A stretch of 64,000 bases of DNA from Capsulimonadaceae bacterium (lineage in GTDB: Bacteria > Armatimonadota > Armatimonadia > Armatimonadales > Capsulimonadaceae): positions 4,672,001-4,736,000 of the forward strand of contig OZ244065.1 of the NCBI GenBank assembly GCA_965215505.1, read 5' to 3'. The notes beneath the pieces are model-generated. The model had not been told where the DNA came from. It ran no database searches and saw nothing but the letters and a program-made list of their open reading frames with translations. The position numbers were made by a program, and so were the translations under genes. Each line of letters begins with the position of its first letter. The stretch's first letter is position 1. This document shows, piece after piece, positions 31,519 to 51,383 of this stretch.

Positions 31519-31722
31519 ACCACATCTGGTAGTGGTCGGTCATTGCCGTACTAGGTCTGTGAAGGCGAAACGCTGACACAGCCATTATGTCACAGGAATG
31601 GGATTTTTCACCCGCTTTTTGGGGGAAAGAGTCGTCGGCCTTCTCTGTAGCAGAGGGCTACCGGGGGCCGACGACACGCGGATGGAGGCCAAAACGAGCG
31701 AACGGATTGGGTGAGGATCGGG
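31519..31722 (-). promoter_or_regulatory. CRISPR leader
   Basis: Between cas2 and the first repeat. Inverted repeat GTCGTCGGCC/GGCCGACGAC (about 31631-31675); TG-n-CATAAT -10-like box on minus strand near 31585. Confidence 0.8.
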
Positions 31723-31986
31723 TTAGAGGAAGTTGCTGACGGGGAGCTTCTCGCAGCCGAACACCTGGCGGTCTACCCACTTGGCGTCGCGCAGGACCCA
31801 GAGGAGGACCGAGTCGCGCTCCCCCGTGAGGAGTTTCTTCAGGCCAACCTTCATGGATTCCAGTTTGGACTCCGGCAGGTCGCCCTCGAAGACCGAGTTC
31901 TGGACGCGCGGCAGGAAGCGCCGCATGAACTTGCAGACCTTGCCGACCCGCTCTTCCCCCACGTCGTAGACGACGATGACGTACAT
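31723..31986 (-). CDS. cas2: CRISPR-associated endoribonuclease Cas2
   Basis: MYVIVVYDV, RVQNSVFEG. Confidence 0.97.
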   Translation of the reverse strand: MYVIVVYDVGEERVGKVCKFMRRFLPRVQNSVFEGDLPESKLESMKVGLKKLLTGERDSVLLWVLRDAKWVDRQVFGCEKLPVSNFL

Positions 31987-32037
31987 GATGAAGTCCTCCA
32001 GATGTGCTGCCAGGAAGGATGCGCTGCCGGCGAGCCG

Positions 32038-33261
32038 TCACCACCAGGCGCGGAAGGCGCGGTAAGTTTCCGCGCCGGTCAGGTGCCGGATCAGCTTGTA
32101 GCACTCCAGGCGGATCAGGTGCCGGTACGAGACCGAACGCCCCAGGCGACGGTGCTTGATGGTGGTCGCCAGGCGGTCCTCCAGAGCGCCCAGGAACAGC
32201 TTCTTGCCCGCGTCGGTCAGGAAGCAGCCGTCGAGGCTGCGGTCGAAGTGGCTGTCCTTGAGCTGGCCCGTGTTGATCAGGCGGAAGATGGCCCGGTCCA
32301 CGATCAGAGGCTTGAAGATCTCCGACAGGTCCAGAGCCAGCGAGAAGCGGCGCGCGCCCGGCTCGTGCAGGTAGGAGATGGTGGGCGTAAGCTGCGTGCG
32401 GTAGATCTCGCCCAGGCAAACGGTGTAGAGGTGTGAGTTGCCGAAGGAGATCAGCGCGTTGACCTCGTTGTCGGGCGGGCGGCGGACGCGCCGCTCGAAC
32501 GTCCATCCTTCGCTGAGGATGTGCCGCCACGCCTGGTAGTAACGCTCGCGCATCTTGCCCTCGATGCCGCGCAACATGTTGATCTCGGCCTGCGCCCCGA
32601 TCAGGTCGGACAGGCCGCCGATGACGTCGCGCAGGGTGCCGAGTGGGCTGGCCGCCTCGTCCCAGACGACCGCGCCGACAAGCGGGTCCGCCTCTCCGTC
32701 CTCCGGCGCTTCGCCTTCGGGTGACACGGCCTCTTGGGGCGGCGCAGGCGCGGCGGCGACAGCGTCTACGGCCGCCTCGGCGTCCGGGTCCGTGGGAACC
32801 CCGCTGCTCGCCCCGCCCTCGCTGCTGGGGGCCTCTTCCGCCCCGATCTCCCCCGCCGGCTCGCGCTCGTCGCCCGCGCCGCCCTTGCGCTTCTCGTAGT
32901 AGGCGATGTTGCGGAGGAGCGAATGGGCGGCCCCGCGCACCAGTTCACGCGCGAGCATCAGGCGCCGATCCATGTCCGCGTAGTGGCTGACCTGGTGGAC
33001 GAGCAGGTAGCCGGAGTGCAGGTATTCGCGCGGATAGTAGGAGCCGGCGTAGAAGCCGTAGTAGTTGAAGACGTGCAGGGGGATCTTCTTTTGCGACAGG
33101 AAGTTGAGTAGCTTGGTGTTCAGGTCCACCTCGCCGTAGAGGTACAGGCTCTCCACGTCCTCGACCGGCACGGGCCGCTTCTGGCCGGCCTCGTTCTCGA
33201 TGTAGAGCGTGTTGGCCTCGCGCTTGACGCGCCCGTTGGACAGCACATAGTAGTTCTTCAT
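32038..33261 (-). CDS. cas1: Type I-B Cas1 with an internal acidic insertion
   Basis: HVFNYYGFYAGSYYP, RGIEG, RRPPDNEVNALISFGNS, SYLHEP, LALDLSEIFKP. Confidence 0.97.
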   Translation of the reverse strand: MKNYYVLSNGRVKREANTLYIENEAGQKRPVPVEDVESLYLYGEVDLNTKLLNFLSQKKIPLHVFNYYGFYAGSYYPREYLHSGYLLVHQVSHYADMDRRLMLARELVRGAAHSLLRNIAYYEKRKGGAGDEREPAGEIGAEEAPSSEGGASSGVPTDPDAEAAVDAVAAAPAPPQEAVSPEGEAPEDGEADPLVGAVVWDEAASPLGTLRDVIGGLSDLIGAQAEINMLRGIEGKMRERYYQAWRHILSEGWTFERRVRRPPDNEVNALISFGNSHLYTVCLGEIYRTQLTPTISYLHEPGARRFSLALDLSEIFKPLIVDRAIFRLINTGQLKDSHFDRSLDGCFLTDAGKKLFLGALEDRLATTIKHRRLGRSVSYRHLIRLECYKLIRHLTGAETYRAFRAWW

Positions 33262-33292
33262 GACATTCTCTTCATGGCGCGCTCCCCCTGCC

Positions 33293-33835
33293 TTACCCCC
33301 AGCAGAGGTCCTGATACGAACACTTCTTGCAGACCGCCATCGGCTTGGGCACGACCGGCGGCGCGGGCCGCTCCCGCGTCGCGCGCACCCCTTCGATGAC
33401 CCGTTCCACCTCGGCCTCCAGGTCGGGCGTCAGGGTCACGTCCTCGCGGCGGCGCTGCTTGGGGTAGTCAATGACGCCCGTCGTCTCGATGCCCTTCTCG
33501 TGCTTGAGGTAATACAGGTAGTAGAGGAGCTGGAAGAGGGTGGCGCGCTGCCCGCCCTGGCTCTTCTTGACCTCGTGGACGGCCCCGCTGTCGGTGAAGT
33601 CCAGGCGTAGGAGGCCGTCAATGAGGACATCCTTGCGGCTCTTGTCCTGATAGCTCTCGCTATGCACGAGCTGCCCCAGGGCGACGTTCTCGGCCCCGAC
33701 GCCGCCGGTGACATGCTCCTGCTCCATGCCGTGCGAGAACCACCACAGCTTGCGCGGGCAGAGGACGAAGTAGTGGACCTCCGTCCCGCCGATGCGGAGG
33801 GCCTGAAGGGAGTCTTGATCTTGCTCGACCGACAT
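33293..33835 (-). CDS. cas4: CRISPR-associated exonuclease Cas4
   Basis: CPRKLW, HEVKKS, QLLYYLYYL, CKKCSYQDLC Fe-S cysteines. Confidence 0.96.
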   Translation of the reverse strand: MSVEQDQDSLQALRIGGTEVHYFVLCPRKLWWFSHGMEQEHVTGGVGAENVALGQLVHSESYQDKSRKDVLIDGLLRLDFTDSGAVHEVKKSQGGQRATLFQLLYYLYYLKHEKGIETTGVIDYPKQRRREDVTLTPDLEAEVERVIEGVRATRERPAPPVVPKPMAVCKKCSYQDLCWG

Positions 33836-33844
33836 GGTATTTCC

Positions 33845-36310
33845 TCAGATGAAATTTGAACCGGGAGCGATACCAATTCCGCGCGTGAACGTATAGTCGC
33901 ACTCGTTACCCAACTTGCGAATGCCAAAAATCTCATTCCAAAAGGCGGGAGCGACGTCTTCTTCTTTGATCCGCAATTGTACAATGTGTTCAGCCATGCT
34001 GCGTAAATGTGCTTCTACAGCGACCTTTAGCTTCTTAAAGTCTTTGTAGTTGCCACGTTTACGTTTTGCCTCTGTCAATGACTGTGCCAGTATTTCTAAC
34101 TGTTCAAAGTCTGTATCTGCTGGTCCTTGTGGGATGTAATAGCGAAATTGCTTGCCAAAGTCTTGTTCATCAATGAGACGGAACCGACCCATGTTCTCAA
34201 ACGCTGCTTCGTTAATACAGCGTATAAGATTTCCTTTGTCATAATCTTTGCCAACTTTTGGATGCTCACCGATAGAAAGGTTGTTATTGACCAGTTCAAA
34301 AAAGGCTTGCTGAATACCTAGCAAATCCCGCTCGCGAACGATTTCCGGCAGATTAGTACGGGAGAAATCTAAATACCAGGCTGGCTCACTTTTCTGATAA
34401 ATCAATGCAGCGCGTGATTTTTTGTTCTCATTCTTTAATTCAAAGACAAACACGATGCCTTGTTTGCTATTGCCATCGTGATCCTGTAGCAATCCGTTAC
34501 GATTACAACGCCCTGCGGCTTGGATAAGATTCGGTAAAGGACACAGGTCTCGAAAGACAACTGGAAAATCAATATCTACGCCCGCTTCGATCAGTTGTGT
34601 TGTAATCAGAACAATCCTTTCGCCCTTATCAAGTACCTGTTTAGCTCTCGCTATTTTCCTGCGGCGGTCGTGTGGTGTGAAAAGTGTGCTCAACAGCATG
34701 ATACACTCATCTTCTTCGGTAGTACTGAGAATATCAAAGAGATTTTTGGTGTCGTCAATTGTGTTCAAGATAATAAGACATGACGATTTTTGTTCGCTAA
34801 CCTTTTCTGCTAGTTTTTCAAGAGAAAACTCGGTATCAAGCATGCGTTGAATTTTGTAACGGTCAAAAACTGGACTGCCATAGTACACAGATGCATTTAC
34901 AAGTTCTTGGGGCTTGACATAAGAAGTGAAAAGCCTCTCAGGACATTCCTGGGGATCGCGTGTTGCTTTTGAAGCTATCTCCAGAGCTGGCATAGTAGCT
35001 GTAGAAATAATAGCGTAAGAGTTGAATTTGCGACAAAAGGCATCAAGAAATGCCGTAAAAAAGACATACAAACGCGGGGGTAACGCTTGTATTTCATCAA
35101 CGAGGAAAATAGTGTTGGAAAAATTGGGCAATCGCAACAAAGTTGCGTTACGGTTGCTCATAAACGTCTCGAATAGTTGCACGAATGTCGTAATGATGAA
35201 AGGGGCATCAAATGTGTCTTGGGCAAAACTCTCTTGCAACAGCGCATCGATCTTTGCTGGATCGTTATCCAGTTCTTCCTGCAACTTCTCCATGCGCTCA
35301 TTGTGCGCCTTTGAGTCGATCCGTAGAACAACATCTTCTTCAGGATTGTCAGTATTCAGAATATCCCGACAAACCCTTTCTACTTGTTCTGTGATCGAGA
35401 GAAAAGGAAGGCCATAAATAATGCCGAGATTGTTGTTCTTCTGAAGAATTTCATTGGCAAGTGCTAACAGCATCATTGTCTTGCCAGATCCCGTCGGCGA
35501 AGTCAATGAGAATACTCGCTGGTCTTTATCAAGCGCCGATTTGAGAGATGTGACAGCCTCTTCCCGAATTTGAGTACGCACTTTATTAAGTTCGCTATCC
35601 ATCGTGAAGGATGCTAGGGTTTTTGTGAGTGCGGTGTCAACGCGGGCTGCGAAAGAGTCGGTGTAGAATGCTCTCCTGAACTCTTTGTTGTCGCCAGCAT
35701 CCCGCTTGTCAGACTCAATGAGACAGGAGAAAGCGAATTGTGTTTCCAATACGAAATCAAGTGGGGCAGTCGCAATAACGCTTTCGCTGCACTTGCTAAA
35801 ATCTTTTAACAGATTTATAGTGGGCTTTTCAAAAAGATCAAATGGCTTATGATTGGTTAGGCTTTGCAGTGATTGCGATGCTCGCAAAAAATCTGATGCC
35901 GGTAAATAGGGCTGCGTTTTAAGAAACTCTACCATTCGGTCACGCTCATTGATACCGATGATACTTTCAGTGAAGTTAGTGAGGTTTCCATGATGGCGTG
36001 CCGTTAAAGCGATAATGCTGAAAATCTGAGAAGCAGTTAGCCCAAGCGGATTGTCCCTGTTCTTTGCAAGGAAGCAAAGGAAAGCATAGGCAGAGAGACA
36101 AGCATGATTTGAGTACGCACCCGCAGTTGGCGGCATATTGCCAAGCTTCTCCTGAAAGAACGGGTTGAGCTTGCCTACATCGTGAAATATGGCGGCAACT
36201 TCTGCAATCCAAAGATTCGTGCGTAGCTTTGTGCCGTCTATGACCCCCTGAGTATGGATGTGAAGCAACTTGTGCGGGTGGGAACGAAAGGCTTCTAGAT
36301 CAAACTCCAT
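33845..36310 (-). CDS. cas3: Cas3 HD nuclease-helicase
   Basis: IFHDVGK (HD), PTGSGKT, VDEIQ, STAT, TTQLIEAGVDIDF, QAAGRCNR. Confidence 0.96.
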   Translation of the reverse strand: MEFDLEAFRSHPHKLLHIHTQGVIDGTKLRTNLWIAEVAAIFHDVGKLNPFFQEKLGNMPPTAGAYSNHACLSAYAFLCFLAKNRDNPLGLTASQIFSIIALTARHHGNLTNFTESIIGINERDRMVEFLKTQPYLPASDFLRASQSLQSLTNHKPFDLFEKPTINLLKDFSKCSESVIATAPLDFVLETQFAFSCLIESDKRDAGDNKEFRRAFYTDSFAARVDTALTKTLASFTMDSELNKVRTQIREEAVTSLKSALDKDQRVFSLTSPTGSGKTMMLLALANEILQKNNNLGIIYGLPFLSITEQVERVCRDILNTDNPEEDVVLRIDSKAHNERMEKLQEELDNDPAKIDALLQESFAQDTFDAPFIITTFVQLFETFMSNRNATLLRLPNFSNTIFLVDEIQALPPRLYVFFTAFLDAFCRKFNSYAIISTATMPALEIASKATRDPQECPERLFTSYVKPQELVNASVYYGSPVFDRYKIQRMLDTEFSLEKLAEKVSEQKSSCLIILNTIDDTKNLFDILSTTEEDECIMLLSTLFTPHDRRRKIARAKQVLDKGERIVLITTQLIEAGVDIDFPVVFRDLCPLPNLIQAAGRCNRNGLLQDHDGNSKQGIVFVFELKNENKKSRAALIYQKSEPAWYLDFSRTNLPEIVRERDLLGIQQAFFELVNNNLSIGEHPKVGKDYDKGNLIRCINEAAFENMGRFRLIDEQDFGKQFRYYIPQGPADTDFEQLEILAQSLTEAKRKRGNYKDFKKLKVAVEAHLRSMAEHIVQLRIKEEDVAPAFWNEIFGIRKLGNECDYTFTRGIGIAPGSNFI

Positions 36311-36996
36311 GCACTTCCTCCTGAAAAACGGTAATGTTCGCCGGTCACTGCTATTTCTTGATTTGCAGTTGGATAGATGACGTCAACATATCGTTCCGGC
36401 AAATTCCAGAAGTCGTTGTTCTGATAGGTCGGAATGCGCTCAAATCCAACGCGGAAGTTGCTAAGGTCAACCCGCTCCCGGTCCAGCTTAAATCGCCGAG
36501 GCACAAAGCCTTGTGTGCTAAAGCTTCCTTCTGAATGGCTGAACTCACCCTGTTCCAGTGGAATAATTTCCGCAGGGCAATTGTGAAGACCGAAAACCGG
36601 TGTGTAATACGACTCACTATTCTGTATGAGTTGAGTGAACTCCTGAAATAGTCCTTCTGACCGTTCATTCGCGAGCGCAAGTGCGACAGTAAAGTCTGGG
36701 TTCTTCAGAAACTCCATCTGCTTTGGAGCCTTCTCAAACAGATTTTCCGCACGACGCAGAGTAAATGCCCACGACTCTTTTCGCACAGTTCCGCTTACCT
36801 GGACTCCGTAAAGTAAATCCTCACTTAGTACTGGAAATAAGGAACGCATGGCCTCCCGCTCTTGACCTGTGACCGCTCCGATCAACCCTATAAAAGCGGT
36901 TTTCGTGATAAAGTCATGTGTCAGCGGATTGTTGTTAGTTTCCGGCTTTTTAAAGTGTGCCCACCTACCGCGTAGGCGCAACGTCAGCCCTTTCAT
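36295..36996 (-). CDS. cas5: Cas5
   Basis: LRGRWAHFKKPE..THDF..KTAFIGLIGAV N-terminal motif; lies between cas7 and cas3. Confidence 0.92.
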   Translation of the reverse strand: MKGLTLRLRGRWAHFKKPETNNNPLTHDFITKTAFIGLIGAVTGQEREAMRSLFPVLSEDLLYGVQVSGTVRKESWAFTLRRAENLFEKAPKQMEFLKNPDFTVALALANERSEGLFQEFTQLIQNSESYYTPVFGLHNCPAEIIPLEQGEFSHSEGSFSTQGFVPRRFKLDRERVDLSNFRVGFERIPTYQNNDFWNLPERYVDVIYPTANQEIAVTGEHYRFSGGSAWSLI

Positions 36997-36998
36997 TT

Positions 36999-37931
36999 TT
37001 ATCCCTCGGCTTCCAAGAACGTCATCGTGTTGAATTTGGGCATCGCCACGAGTTGTTCAGAAAGGCTGGGAACTTCTGTATAGAAGTTGACTGCCTTCAC
37101 AACAGGCGATTGAGTAAGTTCCAGAAACCGTGAAAAGTCCAGAGCGTAGTCGTCGAAAGAGCGCAATTGCTCATCTCTCTTGTCCGATTTGAGGGCGATA
37201 GAGCGATCTACGCCATAGAGCTTTTTTGTCGCGCCACTGTAAACGATTTGCAGCAGCAACAAAGAGTTTTGATTTGACTTGGTGCGAGTATTCGCGTTGT
37301 TGATGCTCTCCCACAGAGCCTGAAACATCAGTCGAATGTCGTCTTCAGTGAGGCCGGTATGACGGGCAGAAAAAGGATTGATCCACCCATGAATTTGATT
37401 TACGACGTATGGCACCACAGTTGTCGTGCCTATCGCACCACGTTCTTTGTCTGTGCTAGATGCAAAGACGGAAGTGTTTTGGTGCATGCGTAATTCGACT
37501 GCGTTAAGAGAGGGGTTTAGCAGGGCGAACTGGACCGGCCCGGTGAGATTGACGGCATTTTTTTCTTGTGTAAGAATTCCTCCGAATAGACGTACATCAG
37601 TGAGGGATTTTAGGATTGCTAGAGTGTCCTTATCCTCCGCGATCTTTTTGAGCGCATTGAAGCGGGCAGCGGCCCCCGACTCTGCATCACCTTTTGCGTT
37701 CTTTTCGACACTGCTCCGATCATTGAGGACATAGACAGAGTTGCGGTCCATGTCGGCAATGTAGTCACGGATGAAGCGCTTGATACGAACATCACTGACG
37801 AGGGCCTTTTTAGTTTCCTCATCGTAGCGCTGCTCACCCGTGAATGGGTCGCCGTTTGGGATCGAGTAGGTACTTTCGTACAAGAAGAGGATTTCTGACT
37901 TATCGACAGGCAGATTTTGCATATTGTTCAT
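36999..37931 (-). CDS. cas7: Cas7 (Csh2-type)
   Basis: PNGDP, VSDVRIKRFIRDY, DVRLFGG, LTGPVQF. Confidence 0.95.
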   Translation of the reverse strand: MNNMQNLPVDKSEILFLYESTYSIPNGDPFTGEQRYDEETKKALVSDVRIKRFIRDYIADMDRNSVYVLNDRSSVEKNAKGDAESGAAARFNALKKIAEDKDTLAILKSLTDVRLFGGILTQEKNAVNLTGPVQFALLNPSLNAVELRMHQNTSVFASSTDKERGAIGTTTVVPYVVNQIHGWINPFSARHTGLTEDDIRLMFQALWESINNANTRTKSNQNSLLLLQIVYSGATKKLYGVDRSIALKSDKRDEQLRSFDDYALDFSRFLELTQSPVVKAVNFYTEVPSLSEQLVAMPKFNTMTFLEAEG

Positions 37932-37953
37932 TGGTGTTTGCTCCCTCCCAGGA

Positions 37954-39771
37954 TTATTCTTCGTCTTGGCCTTCTGCGGCGGTCAGGTCTGGCGCTTTAG
38001 AACCGTCATCAGCTTTCTGATATGGTTGGAAATAGCTCTCAAAGAACCCGAAAGCGCAAAAGTCGCTGTCGTACTTTTCGACGCTCTCATCGAAGCTGAG
38101 AATTTTTTCTGCTAATTCACTTGAAGTGCGGAATGTGAACTTAGTACGATCATGCATCACGAGTTTTTGGTTGATCTCGTTGTGCAATTTGACTACATCA
38201 GGCAATGTCGAGATGCGACGGGACAGCAGCCCAACGTAGTTCTTCTCGAAAGATTTGATGGGGCTTTTAGGTCCAGCGAATTGGCGGCCCATCTTGCCAA
38301 GAAGTGAGCCAACTTGATAGCTTTGAGAACCCTGTATGTCCATGAGGCGGTCCCCTTCGTAATTTTGCAACAGTATCAGAAAGTAGAAATCGTATTTGAA
38401 CAGGTTAAAACCAGTTCCACCGTTGCGAATATTGAACTGTGTTTTTTCGATAAGCGCAGGCAGCAGAACAGGATCGTCGTAATAGGTTTCGCTATAAATT
38501 TGCGGCAAGACTTTAAACAGATGGTTCTGGTACTTCTTTTTCGCCCGCGTCATGTCTCCTAGTATGTTTAGGAATGAACGAGTAATATCTAGCGGAGCAA
38601 GATCCTTCTTGAATAGAAGCTGTCTTTCTTGATTCAACTTGTTGCGGATATGACGTACTTTCTTACTGAGATCAGTGAGCCGACTTTTTTCCAGGCCGGA
38701 GATTTCGAGCAAATCTGAATCCGGCGTAGAAGGACCACTTCCTGCCTTGCTGAAGATAAAGTCAAACTGAACGATGTTATCATCAACATCATCCATGACG
38801 GCTGCAAAGAGCTTATCTAGGTTTGTTTCATCACCAGAAATCTCAGGTGAGGGAGCCGCAAGATTTTCCTCGCTTTGCTCCGCTCGGCTCAACGACTTCC
38901 GCTCGAAAAACGTCTCAATCTGCTTCGCTGTTAGGCGGCTGGTGCTGTCTTGTTCATTGCCACGGGGCAGGACGATGATCTTGACGTCCCGTTCGCGAAT
39001 GACAGCTCTCTGCGAGTAATCGATAGCATAAAGCAGATTCAAAACATCGTCAAATGAGCGAAAGATGCGACTCTTATACTGGCTCTTGCTATCAAACCCA
39101 GGAGCATTATTCTTTCCCGAAGCAAGCGTTTTATAAAGAGCCTTTTTGAGAACATAACCGTTCGCGATCTCTGAATACTCGACGAACTCATCAAGCAGTT
39201 TTTCATTGATGAGCTTCATCTCGCCTTCAAACTCATACCAACTTTTGCCATCAAAATCAAAGTGCAAAAAGATGCTAGGCTTGTCGTGAAGAAGCGCCTC
39301 CAAAGCTTCAATGTTGGCCTTTAGCGAACTGCGAAACTTTTCAATATGAGAATCTGCAAACGCGGCGGCATCTTGTTGGCCGCGCACGAAAGAATTGACT
39401 TGGAAGCCCTTTGCCGCCACGGATGGATCACCAAGAACGAAGTTCGTTTCAGTGATGCTGATGTCGCCCGTTTTGTTATTCGTGACCGTTTGATAGCATA
39501 TGTCGCCAAAGATATACTTCTTCATCGAGTCCGCATCAGAGGTCTTATAGTTGAGATAAAACAGACGGTTCTTGATGAAATCCTCGTCTGTCAGAGGCAC
39601 CCTGTTGTTGAGGTCGAACGTAAAATCAGGCCGTACAGGAATGGAGTAGTAGCTGATTGGCTGTTTCTCAGTGGTTTGTGGTGCTTGCTTAACATACCGA
39701 TGATGCTTGAGACCACCAGGGCCTTTTACATTGCGGAAAGTTTCGCCGATCTTCAAAAGCGTTTCTAACAT
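37954..39771 (-). CDS. cas8b: Cascade large subunit (Cas8b-like)
   Basis: 605 aa directly upstream of cas7; MLETLLKIG start; C-terminal small-subunit-like segment (YQVGSLLGKM..FGFFESY). Assignment is partly positional. Confidence 0.72.
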   Translation of the reverse strand: MLETLLKIGETFRNVKGPGGLKHHRYVKQAPQTTEKQPISYYSIPVRPDFTFDLNNRVPLTDEDFIKNRLFYLNYKTSDADSMKKYIFGDICYQTVTNNKTGDISITETNFVLGDPSVAAKGFQVNSFVRGQQDAAAFADSHIEKFRSSLKANIEALEALLHDKPSIFLHFDFDGKSWYEFEGEMKLINEKLLDEFVEYSEIANGYVLKKALYKTLASGKNNAPGFDSKSQYKSRIFRSFDDVLNLLYAIDYSQRAVIRERDVKIIVLPRGNEQDSTSRLTAKQIETFFERKSLSRAEQSEENLAAPSPEISGDETNLDKLFAAVMDDVDDNIVQFDFIFSKAGSGPSTPDSDLLEISGLEKSRLTDLSKKVRHIRNKLNQERQLLFKKDLAPLDITRSFLNILGDMTRAKKKYQNHLFKVLPQIYSETYYDDPVLLPALIEKTQFNIRNGGTGFNLFKYDFYFLILLQNYEGDRLMDIQGSQSYQVGSLLGKMGRQFAGPKSPIKSFEKNYVGLLSRRISTLPDVVKLHNEINQKLVMHDRTKFTFRTSSELAEKILSFDESVEKYDSDFCAFGFFESYFQPYQKADDGSKAPDLTAAEGQDEE

Positions 39772-39854
39772 GGCATTTCCTGTTACCGCATTCTTGCGAT
39801 GCGCTCGTCATAGAACGGAAGAAGCAGAAGTGCTCAGTGAAGATGAGAGATTGT

Positions 39855-40262
39855 GACCTGCGGCCCTAATCTCCGGCGAGGCACAAGTGCCAGGCGTTGC
39901 TATCTGTCCACAACACCATGTAGCCGAAGCAGGTCGTTTGGCGACCATTCGGGCCGCAGGAACATTTGGGAGAATTATAGCACAGGAAGCAGGGAAACAG
40001 CAAAGGGAGAGGGCGACCTGCGGCCCTATCTTCAGCGAGGCCCTGGGCCAGACGTTGTAACGCCGTGTGACCGAAGAAAGACGTGAAGCGACCGTTCGAG
40101 CCGCAGGGACATTTACAGGCGCAGTATACCCCAAAGAACAGGAGCGCGGGTGGGGCGAAGGGACGACCTGCGATCCTATCTCCCGCGCGAGGCGGGAGCA
40201 GGCCGCGAACGCGACTTTTCGGAGTGCAGGGACGTTTGTCCTCGCGGTATGCCCTAAAGAAT
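39855..40262 (-). repeat. Three tandem diverged promoter+hairpin units (putative ncRNA or regulatory array)
   Basis: Units at 39855-39967, 40015-40114 and 40165-40237 share GACCTGCG..CCTA.CT..GCGAGGC and GCGAC..TTCG...GCAGG.AC.TTT. Their ends are mutually complementary, and each has a minus-strand -10-like box upstream. Confidence 0.8.
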
Positions 40263-40377
40263 CCGCATTGTTCCGTTGTTCTCGATTCATCGGAGTTGCC
40301 CTTTCCCGCGCGCTTATCTGCCATTCTTTTGTGTTCCACAGGGGGTATAATTCACCTGACCCTGGAGGAACACCGCC

Positions 40378-40617
40378 ATGACGGTCTTGCTGTCTTTAAC
40401 AACGGAACAGGAACAAAAACTGACGCAAGCGGCCCAGGCGCGGGGTCTGGATGCCGACCGTCTCTTACACGAGGTGCTGGATACGGCTCTCGCGCAATTA
40501 GAACCCGCGTCGGTGCCCACGCCCAAACGGATGCCGGACCTTCACTTCGGCCAAACCTGGGTTAGTGACGATTTTGATGCGCCTCTGCCCGATAGTTTCT
40601 GGCTAGGTGAAGAATGA
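40378..40617 (+). CDS. Antitoxin (DUF2281/VapB-like)
   Basis: TATAAT at 40346-40351 and RBS GGAGG. C-terminal WVSDDFDAPLPDSFW is typical of PIN-toxin partners; ATGA overlap with the toxin. Confidence 0.8.
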   Translation: MTVLLSLTTEQEQKLTQAAQARGLDADRLLHEVLDTALAQLEPASVPTPKRMPDLHFGQTWVSDDFDAPLPDSFWLGEE

Positions 40618-41000
40618 ACCTCCTCCTGGACACCCACACATTTCTTTGGTGGGACAACGGTTCCGTCAATCTCTCGCCCCGCGTGCTTGCGCTCTGCAAC
40701 GACCCGACCGTGATTCTGTATCTGAGCCTGGTCAGTCTCTGGGAGCTTCAGATCAAGAGCGGCCTGGGCAAACTGTCTTTGCGCCTGCCGCTACGAGCGC
40801 TTGTGGCGGACCATCAGCAAAAGAATGGGATGCGACTGCTGCCGATCACCCTCGACCATCTCCTCGCGCTGGACGCTCTGCCACACCATCATAAAGACCC
40901 GTTCGACCGTCTTCTGATCGCGCAGGCGCAGGTGGAAGGCATGTCCTTAGCCAGCATGGATCATGTTTTTGCCGGCTACCCTGTTTCCCTTATTTGGTGA
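40614..41000 (+). CDS. vapC: VapC-family PIN toxin
   Basis: LLLDTHTFLWW, SLWEL, HKDPFDRLLIAQA, ASMD. Confidence 0.93.
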   Translation: MNLLLDTHTFLWWDNGSVNLSPRVLALCNDPTVILYLSLVSLWELQIKSGLGKLSLRLPLRALVADHQQKNGMRLLPITLDHLLALDALPHHHKDPFDRLLIAQAQVEGMSLASMDHVFAGYPVSLIW

Positions 41001-41752
41001 CCTTTGATGTCCACCATGCCGAATCCCGCCGCGTTCTTCTCGCCGAAGCCGGTTTCGTATCCCACTCGCATCAGGTCCACGGAACCGGAAACGGTGAACG
41101 GGCAGAAGGCACCGACGATTCGGATGTTCTTGAATGTCGTCAGCTTGGTCCCGCCGCCCGTCCGGGCCAGGTAGGCGGGGCCGAAGGCCAGCGCGAAGCG
41201 GTCGTCGTCGGGCAGGTCCCCATAAACCAGGCGGTGCTTGCGGAGCAGGTTGCGGCGCACGGCCTCGGAGAAAGCCTCCCCGTCACTGGGCCGCAGGTAG
41301 CGCGTCCCTCCGTCCGGCAGCGGCAGGGCGGCGACAACCGGCGACAGGCAGGTGAAGGCGGTCGTCTCGGACAGGATGGGGGCGGCCAGCGTCTCGATCT
41401 GCGTGATGGGGAGTGTCGCCGGGCCGACCCGGAGCGCCCCCGCCGCCAGCAGGCCCGTGGCGAGGTTCGTCAGGAACGGCTCCACCGGCGAGGCGATCAG
41501 CCATTCCAGCGGGCCGGGCGCGAAGCGCAGCATGTCGCCGTCCACGGTGCGCCGCGTGCCCCGCAGCCAGGAGAACGTGAACAGCTTGAAGCGCCGCCCG
41601 TCCTCATCCGCGTAACCGTCGTCGTGCAGGAAGCGGGCGTAGTCGGCGTCCGAGGCCGCCAGGAGTCCGTAGACGGCAGCAGTCAACCACTCTTGGTAGT
41701 TGATCGGCAGCCGGGTCCCCGTTGAGTTGTCTAGACAAACGCGCAGGCGCAT
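40976..41752 (-). CDS. cas6: CRISPR endoribonuclease Cas6
   Basis: FLHDDGY..RFKLFTFS and Gly-rich loop GFGEKNAAGFG. Confidence 0.96.
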   Translation of the reverse strand: MRLRVCLDNSTGTRLPINYQEWLTAAVYGLLAASDADYARFLHDDGYADEDGRRFKLFTFSWLRGTRRTVDGDMLRFAPGPLEWLIASPVEPFLTNLATGLLAAGALRVGPATLPITQIETLAAPILSETTAFTCLSPVVAALPLPDGGTRYLRPSDGEAFSEAVRRNLLRKHRLVYGDLPDDDRFALAFGPAYLARTGGGTKLTTFKNIRIVGAFCPFTVSGSVDLMRVGYETGFGEKNAAGFGMVDIKGHQIRETG

Positions 41753-41836: not shown

Positions 41837-42802
41837 TCACGACGCGGCGTAAATCTCGCGGAGTTTTTTCGCCTCCGCCGCCAGCTCCCGGCGCAGGGCA
41901 GGCGGCTCCAGGACCTCGACTTCGGCCCCGTAACCCAGCAGCCAGCGCTTCACCTCCGCCGTCCCTGCCAGGGCCAGCGTCATCTCCAGGCTGCCGTCCG
42001 CCGCTTCCGCGCACTGCTGGCTGGGGTGGTAGCGCCGCTCGCGTATCCAGCGGGCCTGGTAGGGCGAGAAGCGCACCCGCACCGTCACCAGCGCTTCCCC
42101 GTGATGCAGCGCGAAGCCGTGACTCAGGTAGGCTTCCACGTCGAAATCGGCGTCACGCGCGAAGGCATCTCCGGGCGGGAGCAGCGCCCACTCGCGGACG
42201 CGCCCCAGGAAGAAGTCGCGGAAGCCCTGCCGCCACTCGCACCAGGCGATCAGGTACGGCTCGCCGCGCCAGTGGTGCAGGTGGTACGGCTGCACGACCC
42301 GCTCGTTCACGTCGTCGCGGTGGGCGCTGTAGTAGAGGAGTTGGAGACGCCGCCGCTCCTCCAGCCCCCGGCGGCAGTCGTCCAGCAGAGCCGGGGACGC
42401 GCCCACGGCGCTCTGGGCCTGGATGGCACCGCCCATGCTCTCCGCCGCCGTCTCTGCTAAAGATGACAGGAAGGGCTGGAGGCGCTGGGCCAAGGCGCTG
42501 ACCGGCCCGGCGTCCGGCGCGGCCAGGTACTCGCGGGCGGCCAGGAGGGACCGGCGCAGGGTGGCGGCCTCCCGCTCGGTGAGGGCGAGGAACGGGAGCA
42601 GGTAGGTCGGGTCGGTGTAGGCCCACCCGCCGCGCCGCCGGTCGTAGACGAGGGGTGCGCCGAGGTTGTCCGTCAGGTGGCGGTGGTCGGCGAAGGCCGT
42701 GCGGCGGGAGACGCCGAACTGTTGGCAGACGGCCTCGGCGTTGGGGTAGTGCCGGCTGCGGATCTGGCTGTCGATCCAGTAAAGGCGTTCGATCTGAGAC
42801 AA
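41837..42802 (-). CDS. HTH-WYL-WCX transcriptional regulator
   Basis: ERLYWID..FGVSRRTAFAD HTH; ERVVQPYHL..YLIAWC..FRDFFLGRV WYL; VKRWLLGYGAEVEVLEP WCX. TTG start at 42802 inferred from GGAG RBS. Confidence 0.92.
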   Translation of the reverse strand: MSQIERLYWIDSQIRSRHYPNAEAVCQQFGVSRRTAFADHRHLTDNLGAPLVYDRRRGGWAYTDPTYLLPFLALTEREAATLRRSLLAAREYLAAPDAGPVSALAQRLQPFLSSLAETAAESMGGAIQAQSAVGASPALLDDCRRGLEERRRLQLLYYSAHRDDVNERVVQPYHLHHWRGEPYLIAWCEWRQGFRDFFLGRVREWALLPPGDAFARDADFDVEAYLSHGFALHHGEALVTVRVRFSPYQARWIRERRYHPSQQCAEAADGSLEMTLALAGTAEVKRWLLGYGAEVEVLEPPALRRELAAEAKKLREIYAAS

Positions 42803-43552
42803 GGGACACTCGCTCCATGCCGTGAAAAGCCGTAAAGGCGGTTTCTTGCTCTCTGTTCCATAGAGGCCCGGCTTTTTCCTGTCTGTGTCAAGGAACGGAG
42901 AACGTAAGTGCCATTCAATCGTCCGTTGCCTCGGTCTTTGCTTCCCCTGCCCATTGCCGCGAGGGGACGTCCGTCGCCCGGACCCAGCCACGACCTCTGA
43001 TCACCAGCGGTTTTTCCACAGGGTTATCCATAGTTGGCTTTCCAGCCTGCCGATTTTTGCGGAGGGCATTTACTGCTTTGATGCCTTACCCGGACGTGTG
43101 GCGTGGGTTATAATCTTGCGGGGAGAGTGGTTCCGCCCAGACGGAACCGTTCTTGGACAGCAAGGAAGATCAGGAAAGGATCTGGTACGGCGATCCGTTG
43201 CTCCCTGGACCCTGTCCGTTGTGTCACAACGTCCGCTGGTGCGGTCGGACGTGGGTTGACGCGGCGCGATCCTTCTGAGTCCCTCGTAACCCGTGCAAAG
43301 GTCTGACCATTATAAGCCGGGAACAACTGGAAGGGGTTTGTTCGCGCGAGCAAGCGATGGGCTAAGTCCCAGCCAGGAATATGCGGACAGGACTAGTCAG
43401 AGGCCCACGGTCAAACAGAACTGGTTGCATATCGTGAGGCTGAGAGGTGTGGGTGAGGCTTATAACTCTTGGCAAAGCCCACGCGCGGCCTCCCGGTCAG
43501 TATCCGCCACATTCCGTCCTAACAGAACGCCGGACTGCGGCACCAAAAGGGG

Positions 43553-45214: not shown

Positions 45215-45346
45215 ATGAAGCCTACGACACCGCACAGCCAACCCACGCCTAACCCGCATTGGGTCATGTTCTGGCAAAAAGTTCGAGCCGCAGCGGATGA
45301 GTTACGCCGCCTCGAAGCCGAGCAGGCTCAGGGCGACCAGCTTTAG
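45215..45346 (+). CDS. Small hypothetical protein (43 aa)
   Basis: RBS GAGGAGG; MKPTTPHSQPTPNPHWVMFWQKVRAAADELRRLEAEQAQGDQL; below the ORF-track cutoff. Confidence 0.55.
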   Translation: MKPTTPHSQPTPNPHWVMFWQKVRAAADELRRLEAEQAQGDQL

Positions 45347-45539
45347 ATCGAGATCACAAGGAGATCACAATGAACAGTGTTCCATTCAATCGCCCCACAG
45401 GCAGCCCCGGCCCGCGCCGCCCCGTTCTGCCGCCCCGTCTCTTTCTCGACTTGCCCTTACCTGGCCTGGGGCAAACGAGTATTACCGGGGCGCAAACGCC
45501 ACCGGCGGGCGTCACGGAGTGGGAGAGGGGAAAAGCCTG

Positions 45540-46463
45540 ATGTTCCCAGACTACCTCACGTTCAGCGTGCCCCTGCCCGTGGCAGAGTGGCTACTAGGCA
45601 GCCTGACCAGCCCCTACATGAGCAAGCGCTCCCCGTCAAGCACTTATGAAGAGGTGAGACGTTGCGGCGGCGTCTCAATCTCCGTGCCCGCCAACCCGAA
45701 CGCGGAGGCGCGTGTCGAAGTGACAGGTGACGGCTGCCGCGAACTGGAAGCGGCGGGCACGGTAGCCCATTGGCCGACGTTTCTGAGGAGCCTGCTGAAT
45801 GACGGAGCAAGGTTCACGCGCTTTGACTTCGCCATTGACGATCAAATCGGCCTCCTCAATCTCGACCACATCATCACCGCCTGTGAAGAGGGGCGCGTCG
45901 TGTCAGCCTACAAGAGCGTGGACTTCCGCCCCAAGCTGGACGGGACCACCGGCCAGATCATCGGGCGGGGTGTCACGTTCGGCACACGCGGATCGGAGAG
46001 CTACGTTCGCATCTATGACAAGGAGTTACAGCAGGCCGTCCCTGGGCACTGGATCAGAGTGGAGCTAGAGACGCGCAAAGAAAGGGCACAAGCACTGGCA
46101 GAGGCGATCGCCAAGCGCGGGGCACAAGTCGTGCCCCCCATTCTACTCAGCTACCTCAATTTCAAGGTGCAAGGGCGAGACAAGAGGCGGTGCCGCTGGA
46201 AAACGGAAAGCTGGTGGACAACCTTCCTGGGCACGACGCGACGCCGCCGGCTAGAAGTCGCGCCCCGGAACGTGAGCCTGGAGAAGACTTACCGTTGGCT
46301 GATCCGCAGTGTCGCACCGGCGTTCGCGCGAGTATATGACAGTGGGATAGGTGAGCAGCTTATCACGCAGATGCTGGCGCACGGGCGGTCGAGGCTGAAC
46401 CGTATCCCCGCCACGGCTACCAGGAGTGAGGCAGAGCCAGCGGCGAAGGCGGAGCATCCGTGA
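45540..46463 (+). CDS. Rep_trans-family replication initiator / MOBT-like relaxase
   Basis: DYLTFS, VTGDGCRELE, TRFDFAIDD, FGTRGS..VRIYDK..WIRVELE. ATG overlaps an upstream TGA. Confidence 0.88.
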   Translation: MFPDYLTFSVPLPVAEWLLGSLTSPYMSKRSPSSTYEEVRRCGGVSISVPANPNAEARVEVTGDGCRELEAAGTVAHWPTFLRSLLNDGARFTRFDFAIDDQIGLLNLDHIITACEEGRVVSAYKSVDFRPKLDGTTGQIIGRGVTFGTRGSESYVRIYDKELQQAVPGHWIRVELETRKERAQALAEAIAKRGAQVVPPILLSYLNFKVQGRDKRRCRWKTESWWTTFLGTTRRRRLEVAPRNVSLEKTYRWLIRSVAPAFARVYDSGIGEQLITQMLAHGRSRLNRIPATATRSEAEPAAKAEHP

Positions 46464-46568
46464 AGGCATGACAGACCAGCGCGGTCAATCGGAGCCGCCT
46501 CGCGGCCCCTTGACTTCAATTCCAGCCGCCGCCACAACCTTGGGGAGCGCACTGGCAGCAGGACGGTT

Positions 46569-46853
46569 TTAGCTGCCTGTGCGTTTCCCGGCCACGGCGA
46601 GTGCAGCGGAGGATGTCTCCTGCAACGACGCCACATCGCGCTTTCGCCCGCGCCCCGGCCCGCGCGGCTTGATGGTACGCTTGATGCCGTTGTAACTGCC
46701 CGGCTGGTAAGCATCGAGGTCAGCCGCGCGCAGTGCAATCCGATCCAGGACGCGCACGGAAGGCAGCAGGCCCCGCTCGATTGCCTTATAAATGGTGGGC
46801 AGCGAGACGCCCTTAATCTCGGCGGCCTTCTTCGGCGTAAGGTACTCGTCCAT
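46569..46853 (-). CDS. Excisionase-like HTH DNA-binding protein
   Basis: YLTPKKAAEIKGVSLPTIYKAIERGLLPS; divergent from the recombinase. Confidence 0.82.
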   Translation of the reverse strand: MDEYLTPKKAAEIKGVSLPTIYKAIERGLLPSVRVLDRIALRAADLDAYQPGSYNGIKRTIKPRGPGRGRKRDVASLQETSSAALAVAGKRTGS

Positions 46854-47432
46854 GTGTCTCCTGATGCTCGTTTGCCGTGGCAGTTCCTGCTTGTTGTCTA
46901 ACAGTGAATACATTATGACACAAAGAACGCTGGAAGTCCAAACTGTTCTCCTTTCAATATTTAGGAGGAATATCTAGGCCACTTGATATTTAATGTACAA
47001 AACAGTATACTTATAATGCGGCCCTGACCGCCTGAATGAGCGTCGTCACACTAGCCGCTAGGCTGTTCGCCCTGCTTCACGGAGACAGCGCCGCCCACAC
47101 CGAGGCGCGGGCGCGGCCCAGCATCAAAAGCCGTGCGGTACTTTGGGAAGACGGCTACGAGGCTCGCAGCATGAGGCTGGGGTTGTTGCCGGCAACTTCC
47201 CCTAGACAACTTGTACCAGTTCCTGCGGCTTCGATAAGCTGGCCCCGTTCGGCTCATACTGATCCTGCTTGCGCCTTCCCACGTTTCCGTTTGGACGGAG
47301 GCGTGGGGAGTCTCGTGGCAATTGGGGAGGCTTACCGCTCGGCCCTTTGCAGTCCGCCTGAGAGGTTTTTTCATCAAGTAGTCGGGTCCAGGTAGGGGCG
47401 CGGCTGCCATAGCAATGCATAGGAGAAGCATC

Positions 47433-49166
47433 ATGACAACCCCAGACTTCAACAAGTCAAAAGGCGCGGTCCTCTACACCCGCGTCAGCACCGGCGACCA
47501 GGACAAAAACGGGACAAGCCCGGAGACGCAGCTTTCCGCCTGTCGGGCTAGGGCGCTCGCTGAGGGCCTGCCCGTCGTCGCACAGTATCATGACGGCGGC
47601 ATATCAGGCGGCTTCCTGCTGACCCGCGCGGGGATGCAGGCGGCCCTTGCCGACATCCAGGCCGGGCGGGCTGACACGCTCATCTGCGCCAACATCAGCC
47701 GCTACAGCCGTGACACCGAACATCAGCAGGCGATCAAGAAGGCCGTCAAAGCGGCGGGCGGCCATCTCGTATTCTGCGACATGGCGTTTGATGACACGCC
47801 GGAGGGGGATCTCGCATTCGGCGTGATGGGGACTTTCGCCGAGTATGAGCGCAAAGTGATTCGCCAGAGGACCATGCGGGGCAAGAGGAAGCGCGCGGAG
47901 GAGGGGCAGCAACCGCAGCGCAGCCGGTCCCCCTACGGCTATCACATCGTCACCAACGCCGAAGTGGCCGCCGGGCTGCACCCTGCCCACCTGCGCGGGC
48001 GCTACCTCGTTCTGGAACCGATGGCCGGTATGGTGCGGCGCATCTTCGCCGATTATCACTCCGGGGCGTTCAGCCTGTCCGCGCTGTGCCTCGCGCTGAA
48101 CCGTGAGGGGGTTGCGACGCCCGGCCACGGGAGAGCCTGGCAGGAGGCCACACTGCGGGTCATCCTGATGAACCCCGTTTATAAGGGCGAACCCGTCAGC
48201 GGGCGGCAGAAGTGCGTCACCGACGAGAGCCGCATCGGGCAACGGCACAAGCTGACGGGCCGCCCCATCCGCACTCCGTACACGCGCACCCTGGCCCCTC
48301 CTGATGACCTCCTGACGCTCTCCGCCCCACCTCTGGTTGACGCCGAGGTTTGGGAGGCCGTGCAGTCGCGCCTGACCCGCATGAGCGGCGAGGGTGGCGG
48401 CAGCCCGCGTCAGGTGAGGATGCTGTCGGGCCACACGGTCTGCCCCTACTGCGGCGGCAAAGCCGGCATCAAGTACCAGAAGGCGAACGGGAAGAGATAC
48501 CGCTACTTCACCTGCAACCAGCACAAACAGGCGCGGCGCGGACACGAAGGTTCTCCGTGCCGGGGCGAGCTGTATCCGGTGGAGACAGTAGAACAGGCCG
48601 TGTTGCAGTCCCTTCGGGATGCTTGGCAGAAGCCCGCCGCAGTCCAGGCGGCCCTGCACGTCTACACCGAGCCGATGCCGCTCAACAAGCGGACGGGCGA
48701 AGACGCCGAAACCCGGAAGGCCTTGGACGACCTGAAGGTGGAAGAGCAGGCGACCGCACAGGCCCAGGTCGCAGCCATCCGCGCGGGTGCATCACCAGAC
48801 GCTTTCGCGCCCCTCTTCGCTGACATCGCCGCCCGGCGAAAGGCGTTACTGGCGCAACAGCAACCGGCGGCCATGAGCGGTGCGGCGGACGAAACGGGGA
48901 AGCCGGGCCGGGCAGGGCGGAAGAGCACCAATGTTGATCTGAAGATGGCCTGCCTGGCGATGGAGGAGGCGTGGCGCGTTCTGACCAGTGAAGGGGTCGA
49001 GGGGCACGTCAAACGCGATCTGCTGCTGACACTGGTAGAGAAGGTGATCTGCCACAAAGACGGGGCTGAAGTCGTGTTTCTCCCCGGCGTGTTCGGGGAC
49101 GCCGGGGAGGGCGACGGGGTATCAACCCTTTATACCACCTGCATCGGCATCAGGACGCACAGGTAG
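47433..49166 (+). CDS. Large serine recombinase (integrase)
   Basis: LYTRVST catalytic motif, SRYSRD, FAEYERKVIRQRT, PYGY, ILMNPVYKG, Zn ribbon CPYCGG..YFTC; RBS AGGAG. Confidence 0.95.
   Translation: MTTPDFNKSKGAVLYTRVSTGDQDKNGTSPETQLSACRARALAEGLPVVAQYHDGGISGGFLLTRAGMQAALADIQAGRADTLICANISRYSRDTEHQQAIKKAVKAAGGHLVFCDMAFDDTPEGDLAFGVMGTFAEYERKVIRQRTMRGKRKRAEEGQQPQRSRSPYGYHIVTNAEVAAGLHPAHLRGRYLVLEPMAGMVRRIFADYHSGAFSLSALCLALNREGVATPGHGRAWQEATLRVILMNPVYKGEPVSGRQKCVTDESRIGQRHKLTGRPIRTPYTRTLAPPDDLLTLSAPPLVDAEVWEAVQSRLTRMSGEGGGSPRQVRMLSGHTVCPYCGGKAGIKYQKANGKRYRYFTCNQHKQARRGHEGSPCRGELYPVETVEQAVLQSLRDAWQKPAAVQAALHVYTEPMPLNKRTGEDAETRKALDDLKVEEQATAQAQVAAIRAGASPDAFAPLFADIAARRKALLAQQQPAAMSGAADETGKPGRAGRKSTNVDLKMACLAMEEAWRVLTSEGVEGHVKRDLLLTLVEKVICHKDGAEVVFLPGVFGDAGEGDGVSTLYTTCIGIRTHR
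49130..49146. repeat. Right attachment-site direct repeat (dnaN 3' end, inside recombinase ORF)
   Basis: TTATACCACCTGCATCG; encodes the end of ..PMQVV* on minus and YTTCI on plus. Confidence 0.85.
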
Positions 49167-49885
49167 TCGGCGTCGTCGGTGGGGCGGATGACGCCGGGGT
49201 GCAGCGGCTCGGTCAGCTCGATGTGCAGGCCCTCGGTGTCCAGCACGTTCAGCACGTCGGCCAGGTACTTGGCGTTGAAGGCGATCTCCACCAGGCTGGC
49301 GTCGCCCGCGCGGGCCACCTCCACCTCCTCGTAGGCGTTGCCGACGCTCCCGCTCTCCGCCGTGATGGTCAGCCGGTCGCCGTCCTCGGTCGTCCGCAGG
49401 ACGACCCGGCTGGCCGAGTCGCGGGCGACGATGGAGGCGCGCTTGACGGCGGCGGCCAGGGGCGCGCGCTCGACGGTCAGGGTCTTGGTGGCCTGGGCGG
49501 GGATGACGCGCTCGTAGTTTGGGAACTGGCCGTCGATCAGGCGCGAGATCAGGGTCGTCTTGCTGCCCTGCCCGTCACTCTTATCGCCTTCCCCCTTGCC
49601 GCCGCCGTTCTCGATCTGGAACTGGATCTGGTTGCCGGACAGGGTGACGACCACCTCGCCGTCCTCGTTGCCGATGATGCGGAGAAGCTCGTTCATGGCG
49701 CGCGACGGCACGATGGCGCTGGCGCTGCCCGACCCCTCCTTGACGGGGCAGTCGCGGACGGCCAGGCGGTGGGTGTCGGTGGCGACCAGGCGCAGGCTGT
49801 CGCCCTGGAAGACGACCAGGACGCCGGTGAGGATGGCGCGGGTCTCGTCGGTGGAGGTGGCGAAGATGGTCTGCTTGATGGCGTC
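49130..49885 (-). pseudogene. dnaN: DNA polymerase III beta clamp, 5'-truncated (domains II-III only)
   Basis: DETRAILTG, VATDTHRLA, SRLIDGQFPNYERVIP, IAFNAKYL, VLMPM. The N-terminal third is absent and no dnaA lies upstream. Confidence 0.88.
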
Positions 49886-50042
49886 GGGCATCCCCGGTGA
49901 AGCCATCCGGCTGAGGGCGTTGAGCAGGAGACGAGAACGCGGCTCCCGGCCCGCCGCATCTGCAATGAACGCGACCTACCTGTGCCGCAGAGCCATGACC
50001 ACATAAAACCGAACACACCGCATCCGCGCATCGTCAGGCCTG

Positions 50043-51383
50043 TCACGGCGCGGGGGAGGGGACGGAGGGCAGGCCGCGCGCGCCGTCCGCAGACACCGAC
50101 CGGACGGCAAACAGGTAGTCGTCTTTGGACAGGGGGAGCGTGACTGTCTCCGCCCCCTCGACCCGTTTAAAGCCGGTCCAGTCGGGCGCGTCCGTCGGAC
50201 GCCATAACACCTCGTAAGCCGCCGCGTTCGGCACACGCCCCCAGGAGAGTTTCGTCTCCGGGCTGAGGTCGGCTTTCAGCAGGACACTCGGCGGCGGGGC
50301 GGGGGCGGAGGCAAGCGAGGCGACAGTCGCGGCGTTCACGCGGGCGACGCGCGCCAGATACTCGTAGTCCACGAACTGCGGCAGGTCGCCGTACTGGACG
50401 CCTTTTTCCACGCGCACGTCCTGGTGCTGGTGCCGCCAGTCCTCGTTCATCTCGGTGAAGCGCACGGCGGGAAAGCCGCGCTGGACGAACGGGGCGTGGT
50501 CCCCGCCGCGCAGATAGCGGTCCAGGCGGTAGACGAGCGCGACGCCGAAGCCGGGCACATAGCGACGGCCCGCGTCCAGGACGGACCGCGCCAGTGTCCG
50601 GGCGGGCGTGTCGGCGTCCGTCCCCGCCGACCGCCTGCGGGCGGTCTGGGCCGCCGTCTCCGTCGGGTCCGCGCCCGAGGCGAACACCCGGACGTGCGAG
50701 TCGTCGTGGATGCCGCCTTGCCCGTGCGAGTTGCCGACGATGTCGTTCGTGATCATCGCCTCCACGTCAACCTTGCCGTCAGTCATCTCCTGCGCCAGGT
50801 GCGTCGAGCCGTACAGCCCCTGCTCCTCCCCCGTCACGGCGACGAACTTGACCGTTGCCGCATAGTGGTGGCCCGCCATCAGCCGGGCCAGTTCCAGCGC
50901 GACGGCCACCCCCGAGGCGTCGTCGTTCGCCCCCGGCGCGGTCGCCGAGGCGTTCATCACGTCCGTGACGCGCGAGTCGTAGTGCCCGCTGATGATGATG
51001 ACCCGCTCCGGCGTCTCGTCGCCCGGCAGCGTCGCCACAACGTCCGTCAGCGAGACGGGCGCGGGCAGACGCTCCCCCGCAGGCTGCGTCCAGGTGTCCC
51101 GCTCGACTCGGAGCCGCCCGCCGTTAGCCGCCGAGACCGCCTGAAACTGCGCCGCGATCCAGTTCACCGCGAGTGCGCTGCCGGTCGGCGAGAGCGTGTG
51201 GCGCGTCGGGAACGACGCCAGCGTCCGCACCGTGTTTTCCAGCCGCGCCGCCGAGACGCCGCCGACGACGGCCTGCACCCCGGCGTCTTTATCCGGCGGG
51301 GCCGCGCCCGCCGCGCCGGCAAAAAGAAGCAGCGTGGCCGCGAAAGGGGCGGAGAGGAAAAAGGGAAATCGGAGCGTCGTCAT
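50043..51383 (-). CDS. M28 family metallopeptidase, secreted
   Basis: GHYDSR, PGANDDASG, GEEQGLYGS, GGDHAPF. Confidence 0.92.
   Translation of the reverse strand: MTTLRFPFFLSAPFAATLLLFAGAAGAAPPDKDAGVQAVVGGVSAARLENTVRTLASFPTRHTLSPTGSALAVNWIAAQFQAVSAANGGRLRVERDTWTQPAGERLPAPVSLTDVVATLPGDETPERVIIISGHYDSRVTDVMNASATAPGANDDASGVAVALELARLMAGHHYAATVKFVAVTGEEQGLYGSTHLAQEMTDGKVDVEAMITNDIVGNSHGQGGIHDDSHVRVFASGADPTETAAQTARRRSAGTDADTPARTLARSVLDAGRRYVPGFGVALVYRLDRYLRGGDHAPFVQRGFPAVRFTEMNEDWRHQHQDVRVEKGVQYGDLPQFVDYEYLARVARVNAATVASLASAPAPPPSVLLKADLSPETKLSWGRVPNAAAYEVLWRPTDAPDWTGFKRVEGAETVTLPLSKDDYLFAVRSVSADGARGLPSVPSPAP

Follow-up and report, generated by a model that had tools for sequence, protein, structure and literature searches.

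A putative attachment site within the 3′ end of a large serine recombinase gene at the end of dnaN in a Capsulimonadaceae bacterium

Integrase genes that extend across the phage attachment site (attP) are known from Mx8 and from the fusellovirus SSV, in which the gene acquires a different 3′ end on integration (PMC4383910, PMC6070905). A related principle applies to phage repressors: in the mycobacteriophages BPs and Brujita, in their relatives and in bifidophages, the available text places the attP core in an open reading frame (ORF), with different C-termini in the free and integrated forms and integration-dependent loss of an ssrA-like tag (PMC9934374, PMC6109161). Here we analysed a stretch of 64,000 nucleotides of contig OZ244065.1 of a Capsulimonadaceae bacterium (hereafter the window), in which the gene of a large serine recombinase (LSR) appears to hold the attP of a genomic island in its own 3′ end. 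The LSR shares its Resolvase, Recombinase and zinc-ribbon domains, and integration into a coding sequence, with the integrases SPbeta SprA, TP901-1, A118/LI, phiC31 and Bxb1, the attP of which lies, to our knowledge, outside the integrase ORF. Neither a serine integrase ORF spanning attP nor dnaN as a serine-integrase target was found in the literature covered; supplementary tables of one paper, outside this coverage, may list cases, and the available part of that paper mentions only a filter for LSRs whose att site is no farther than 500 nt away (PMC10083194).

Mx8 (the IntP of which takes on a prophage form) and SSV, to the extent covered by the sources above, likewise have attP in the integrase coding sequence and a C-terminus that is changed by integration. 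Their integrases are tyrosine recombinases with tRNA targets, whereas a serine recombinase and the 3′ end of dnaN are involved here, and the exchanged tail is short (6 vs. 24 residues). With a probability of roughly 0.75, we interpret two copies of a 17-bp sequence as the left and right attachment sites (attL and attR) of a 37.3-kb island, place attP within the recombinase gene, at its 3′ end, and regard the tail swap as real and most likely a by-product of compaction.

The 17-mer TTATACCACCTGCATCG was identical at 11880-11896 and 49130-49146, and no third match with three or fewer mismatches was present in the window. A chance match was rejected: 0.05 matches were expected, and two or more were reached in 1 of 100 shuffles. 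As a preliminary description of this DNA had stated, the right copy lies inside the LSR ORF, where its reverse complement reads as the final five codons and the TAA stop of a minus-strand dnaN frame (..LMPMQVV, then stop). In the integrated state, the C-terminus of the recombinase reads ..STLYTTCIGIRTHR; read on through the left copy (locus L140), the frame remains open, as had also been described, and gives ..TCIVCRVENHVSSYETRRLPSEQRAAA with a stop at 11968-11970. The exchange predicted on excision would thus replace the six residues GIRTHR by a 24-residue tail ending in AAA. The antisense origin of the integrated tail was likewise recognised correctly in that description, but the dnaN in question is a 3′ fragment and not the whole gene.

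Symmetry was scored on the reconstructed attP with 24-nt arms (maximum score 24). In the window, a TG dinucleotide inside the 17-mer scored 15 of 24 as the centre, vs. 2-8 at other offsets, and it was the unique best centre in seven of eight family attPs, with a tie in the eighth. The element TCAACCCT at 49122-49129 perfectly complements AGGGTTGA at 11902-11909, forming an 8-bp inverted repeat with each half 10 nt from the TG, and the outer elements of the P and P′ arms co-vary across lineages (ACCCT/AGGGT, ACTTT/AAAGT, AACTT/AAGTT). The reconstructed site would resemble those of characterised large serine integrases, which have a dyad-symmetric attP of about 50 bp with a central dinucleotide, and crossover is predicted at the TG, within a Cys codon.

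A homologue search yielded 250 proteins at E ≤ 1e-30. Among the best 120 of these 250, the tails of 56 had the form T[TI]C[IMV]G[IM]xT[HQ][RK] before the stop, corresponding to the dnaN end read antisense; 7 had ..C[IMV]-VC followed by a variable tail, and the other 57 ended differently. Relatives at E ≤ 1e-60 occurred in 33 of 401 sampled genomes of the same phylum; a single-protein scan of genome contigs had given one relative (L004), and the wider genome search gave more. At L004/L009 (dnaN of 387 aa at L004), L011, L012, L013, L014 and L024, the recombinase gene converges on a full-length dnaN and overlaps it. Among 50%-cluster representatives, the dnaN-type family amounted to about two, and no further free-form tails were found in that set.

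The core with its P′ arm, ACCTGCATNGTNTGYNRNRT, was present in 9 of 39 family genomes, while the reversed control gave 0 matches. Directly left of this motif lay either a host dnaN end with its downstream DNA, which is the arrangement of an attL (the window, G284, G326, G410, G130, G121), or the 3′ end of another recombinase gene (L135, L136, L142, L053, L056); a search with the strict motif found no attL in G175 and G103. In G284, the host dnaN ending ..GTGGTTTAG is retained at attL together with its terminator hairpin, and the working dnaN ends in ..GTCGTGTGA, which was contributed by the element, the shared core being only 8 bp; the final codons of dnaN are thus exchanged for those of the P arm. 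The occurrence of both kinds of tail among homologues, the conservation of the P′ motif and the dyad centred in the 17-mer support the earlier placement of an attachment site inside the recombinase ORF.

In the architecture that we propose, the LSR family would use the final codons of dnaN as its target and lie convergent with that gene. The P arm would fulfil a triple role, acting as a half-site for the recombinase, coding for the end of the enzyme (..T-(L/F)-(Y/H/Q)-T-T-C) and, on the opposite strand, providing a spare dnaN end (QVV and stop). In its integrated form, the ORF extends seven codons into antisense dnaN and stops at the TAG at 49164-49166; a stop is forced at this position because antisense reading of the Asp-Tyr codons of dnaN yields TAG or TAA in every case. 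When free, or when abutting the P′ arm of another element, the frame would take up V-C-(R/K/Q/E/D)-(V/I), encoded by the P′ half-site, before running on to a chance stop, with the tail swap arising as a by-product of the compact att design.

A sister clade (L015, L016, L022) has recombinases ending in ..TLTELIQ, which is the antisense of ..RYCINSVS.. in msrB, and there too the own C-terminus of the target gene is replaced by element sequence. In many more-distant relatives, a (D/E/Q)T(V/L)x motif is found near the end. Together, these features suggest that the layout with attP in the recombinase gene may be old in this branch. Tandem or decayed arrays were seen at L039 (G112:C1:2570296-2573310) and also at L135, L136 and L056. 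At L039, a truncated recombinase gene (261 aa, beside a transposase) has its P arm joined to the P′ arm of its neighbour, a 59-kb element at dnaN. Such arrays imply integration into attR or attL, which would be non-canonical for serine integrases.

Pfam assigned the recombinase to Resolvase (PF00239; 1.2e-31, residues 12-159), Recombinase (PF07508; 1.8e-12) and Zn_ribbon_recom (PF13408; 8.2e-09), and its N-terminal region contains ..VLYTRVSTGDQ.., which we take to be the serine recombinase active-site motif. The structure model showed long helices at residues 421-483, after the zinc ribbon, and its last confident strands at 535-549; residues 556-577 had a predicted local distance difference test score (pLDDT) below 50, and the swapped segment is probably a disordered, exposed appendage. 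Matches in the Protein Data Bank covered the catalytic domain only. Identity to the phage or plasmid records searched was only 24-30%, the viral contigs contained two loci at 25-29% identity, and no close relatives were found in any of these sets; the family looks like one of chromosomal islands rather than phages. Two paralogues are present in the source genome: L006 (G000:C1:4219364-4221010) is 52% identical and has three in-frame stops, and L007 (G000:C1 608235-609905) is 47% identical and intact, with a different tail (..DTVQGVSTPQPRK..) that presumably reflects another target.

Eighteen distinct free-form tails were collected, 7 from proteins and 11 from DNA (window included). The tail of the window, putatively VCRVENHVSSYETRRLPSEQRAAA, and that of L056 both end in AAA; the protein-derived tails end in ATA, TAV, DIA, FAD, ELY, QEV and AIA, and the other nine from DNA in MQQ, NSP, KSF, EEA, EAT, HPS, AGI, RSR and ESP. 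Overall, an AA terminus occurs in 2 of the 18 tails and an A terminus in 6, and none of the seven tails of the VCQV group, which was found in the window's own genus, ends in A (EAT, HPS, AGI, NSP, RSR, ESP, KSF). Tail length was 15-35 residues (mean about 21), with a mean stop-to-stop distance of 31 in the same DNA. The tails were conserved only at the P′ half-site, both length and sequence being unconstrained further on, and the window, L056 and L053 had no DNA homology beyond the P′ arm.

Several observations weigh against an island with attP in its recombinase gene and a neutral tail swap. Compared with a local null of 346 stops in flanking DNA (AA 1.4%, A 10.4%), the tails were nominally enriched in Ala ends (A in 6/18, p=0.008; AA in 2/18, p=0.03), although these p-values overstate the enrichment because related elements were treated as independent. 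A second point concerns the target. The source genome (G000) is a single contig of 6.18 Mb, and its full dnaN (399 aa) lies at G000:C1:~3017810-3019009 (~3.018 Mb; L002 1060-2259), 1.7 Mb from the window. This gene ends in the same 17-mer, with no element adjoining. The island occupies a dnaN fragment, and the site of the working gene is empty; the island may therefore have arrived inside a larger piece of DNA and may now be immobile. The fragment is 97% identical to full-length dnaN over query positions 1-756, and it lies in a 258-aa ORF (49130-49906, minus strand) which has its own ATG, starts in non-dnaN sequence and encodes clamp domains II-III; dnaN copies elsewhere in public runs extend beyond 49885. 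In relatives, homology with the window does not return until about 50039-50056, where the stop of an M28 peptidase gene lies, indicating that the dnaN fragment is part of the variable region; the left flanks were unmatched. Thirdly, this DNA was present in 24 public runs, as assembled contigs only, of which X19, X21, X22 and X24 were compared over 46500-50500. Neither a circle junction (49141 to the P′ arm) nor an empty site was found among the contig pieces listed, which break at the repeated dnaN: the compared contigs end at 49159, 49128 or 49106, where it starts, and this negative weighs neither for nor against excision. Lastly, the only potential recombination directionality factor is a candidate, the HTH_17 protein encoded next to the recombinase gene, which might act as an excisionase or directionality factor.

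The AAA end raised the question of protein stability. In the preliminary description, the free-form tail was proposed to be an ssrA-like degron for ClpXP, making the recombinase short-lived when expressed from the circle and stable once integrated. This would be integration-dependent control in the guise of a serine integrase, an explanation that we consider unlikely. Repressors of mycobacteriophages and bifidophages offer an established example of such control (PMC9934374, PMC6109161). The tmRNA tag of this genome ends in ..SFALAA, which the AAA of the window tail resembles, and the swapped segment is probably disordered and exposed, judging by the model. Furthermore, the distant relative L056 (54% identity) likewise ends in ..NAAA, two of the four tails starting with VCRV end in AAA, and the Ala-terminal enrichment is nominally in line with a degron. 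However, 16 of the 18 free-form tails have no AA end and 12 no A end, all seven tails of the VCQV group in the window's genus end otherwise, the two AAA tails have no common DNA homology past the P′ arm, the scatter of tail lengths is that predicted for read-through, and the enrichment test ignores relatedness. The logic would also be odd, since the integrase is needed from the free form and its destabilisation there would oppose integration. In the BPs-type systems, as far as their available descriptions go, regulation acts on the repressor, integration relies on a tyrosine recombinase and the tag is a defining trait that recurs, whereas here the recombinase itself would be affected and AA was found in 2/18 tails. 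When the attP of homologues was rebuilt to look for a conserved AA tail, as had been suggested, the tails proved diverse, and a selected AA degron is not supported as a family trait. For this element, and perhaps the VCRV subgroup, it is at best a slim possibility that the AAA and/or CxxC tail limits the lifetime or activity of the enzyme after excision and that the dnaN-encoded tail lifts this limit; if true, this would be the first serine integrase with stability or activity set by its own recombination reaction.

The swap could also be functional without proteolysis, through gain of a Cys-x-x-Cys motif (..TTC-I-V-C..) or loss of the conserved integrated tail, either of which would alter activity or directionality; we regard this as highly improbable. 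In each of the 18 free-form tails, the Cys is followed by V-C, and a precedent exists in Mx8 IntP/IntX, in which integration alters the int 3′ end and integrase behaviour (PMC6070905). The V-C is, however, encoded by the P′ half-site, a palindromic element that varies in step with the P arm at the DNA level, and DNA recognition already accounts for the conservation of V-C; in addition, the integrated tail is fixed by the coding constraint of dnaN, and the tail region has low confidence in the model. Very improbable, and rejected here, is a crossover at the ends of a 115-bp dnaN repeat (11003/11004 and 49260/49261), by which the element would carry the dnaN 3′ end and keep a constant tail, the 17-mer at 11880 being no att core: this would account for the 92%-identical direct repeat (10889-11003 and 49146-49260) and for the fossil recombinase 3′ end abutting its left copy, but the family P′ motif is found at 11897, directly after the 17-mer, and not at 11004, the dyad symmetry is centred in the 17-mer, the attL of relatives has the host dnaN end and terminator directly left of the P′ motif, and the left repeat lacks the core entirely.

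The features of the island and its surroundings are listed in Table 1. Between intact attL and attR, the island (11880-49146) carries a complete type I CRISPR-Cas locus, a Rep_trans gene and the full-length recombinase gene, in addition to an insertion sequence and a PIN_8 protein. Rep_trans initiators are typical of integrative mobilisable or conjugative elements. The CRISPR effector genes have a GC content of 42-49%, far below that of cas6, cas1 and the flanks.

Left of the island, the 3′ end of a second recombinase gene is fused to a second dnaN fragment, and the 28 bp expected to hold the att core are missing at the fusion. The region 10753-11003 is a fossil of an older attR; comparison with an intact relative in L136 indicates that the missing 28 bp would fit a deletion between two GCATCAA repeats. 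Of the 23 congeneric genomes searched, 6 carried homologues (67-73% identity) of the BolA-like/HEPN-like gene pair located between this fossil and attL, at different loci, and two more genomes had short matches only. A fragment of the pair with 86% identity was seen at G410:C37:2839-2944, about 220 bp from the attL of G410, and a contig of run X21 with a loose end at 49248 has a dnaN 3′ piece joined to sequence resembling 11004-11879. The pair may form a small module, and dnaN ends may be among the places where it inserts. In run X19, at a loose end before 49137, a second family member was seen at a dnaN end, with a P arm (..GATACTTTTCACACG) resembling that of G284.

Table 1. Positions of the attachment-site, recombinase and neighbouring features in the 64-kb window.
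Feature	Position	Strand	Remarks
Fossil recombinase 3′ end	10753-10896	+	Second, related gene, insertion-interrupted; 82-84% identity to 49005-49125
Second dnaN 3′ fragment	10889-11003	-	Fused to fossil; 115 bp, 92% identity to 49146-49260
Two small genes	11029-11788	-	139 aa, weakly BolA-like; 164 aa, weakly HEPN; between fossil and attL
Hairpin	11825-11866		Between fossil and attL
attL core (putative)	11880-11896	+	17-mer
P′ arm and read-through codons	11897-11970	+	AGGGTTGA at 11902-11909; putative free-form tail VCRVENHVSSYETRRLPSEQRAAA, then stop
CRISPR-Cas cargo	25783-41752	-	Array of ~85 repeats at 25783-31518; cas1, cas4, cas3, cas5, cas7, cas6
WYL regulator	41837-42991		
Rep_trans rolling-circle initiator	45297-46463	+	Pfam 7.9e-35
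HTH_17 protein	46569-46913	-	Pfam HTH_17 2.4e-08; just upstream of recombinase gene
Large serine recombinase gene	47433-49166	+	577 aa from 47433; alternative upstream ATG 47415; last codons cross attR
P-arm inverted-repeat element TCAACCCT	49122-49129	+	Inside recombinase S-T-L codons
attR core (putative)	49130-49146	+	17-mer shared with attL; antisense of dnaN MQVV codons and stop
Predicted crossover dinucleotide TG	49140-49141	+	attL equivalent 11890-11891; from dyad symmetry
dnaN 3′ fragment	49130-49885	-	756 bp; Pfam DNA_pol3_beta_2 and beta_3; domains II-III only

The striking AAA tail of this recombinase can come from read-through, which calls for caution when degrons are assigned from single sequences. 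The attP/attB pairs defined here lie at a gene end that is universally conserved in bacteria and are of potential interest to builders of integrase tools. More broadly, the analysis delimits a large and uncharacterised serine-integrase family with at most about 30% identity to the phage and plasmid records searched, and would extend to serine recombinases the attP-spanning layout described for tyrosine integrases in the literature covered. In the compact att design of this family, a single 25-nt arm would combine a recombination half-site, the C-terminus of the enzyme and, on the opposite strand, the end of the essential beta-clamp gene.

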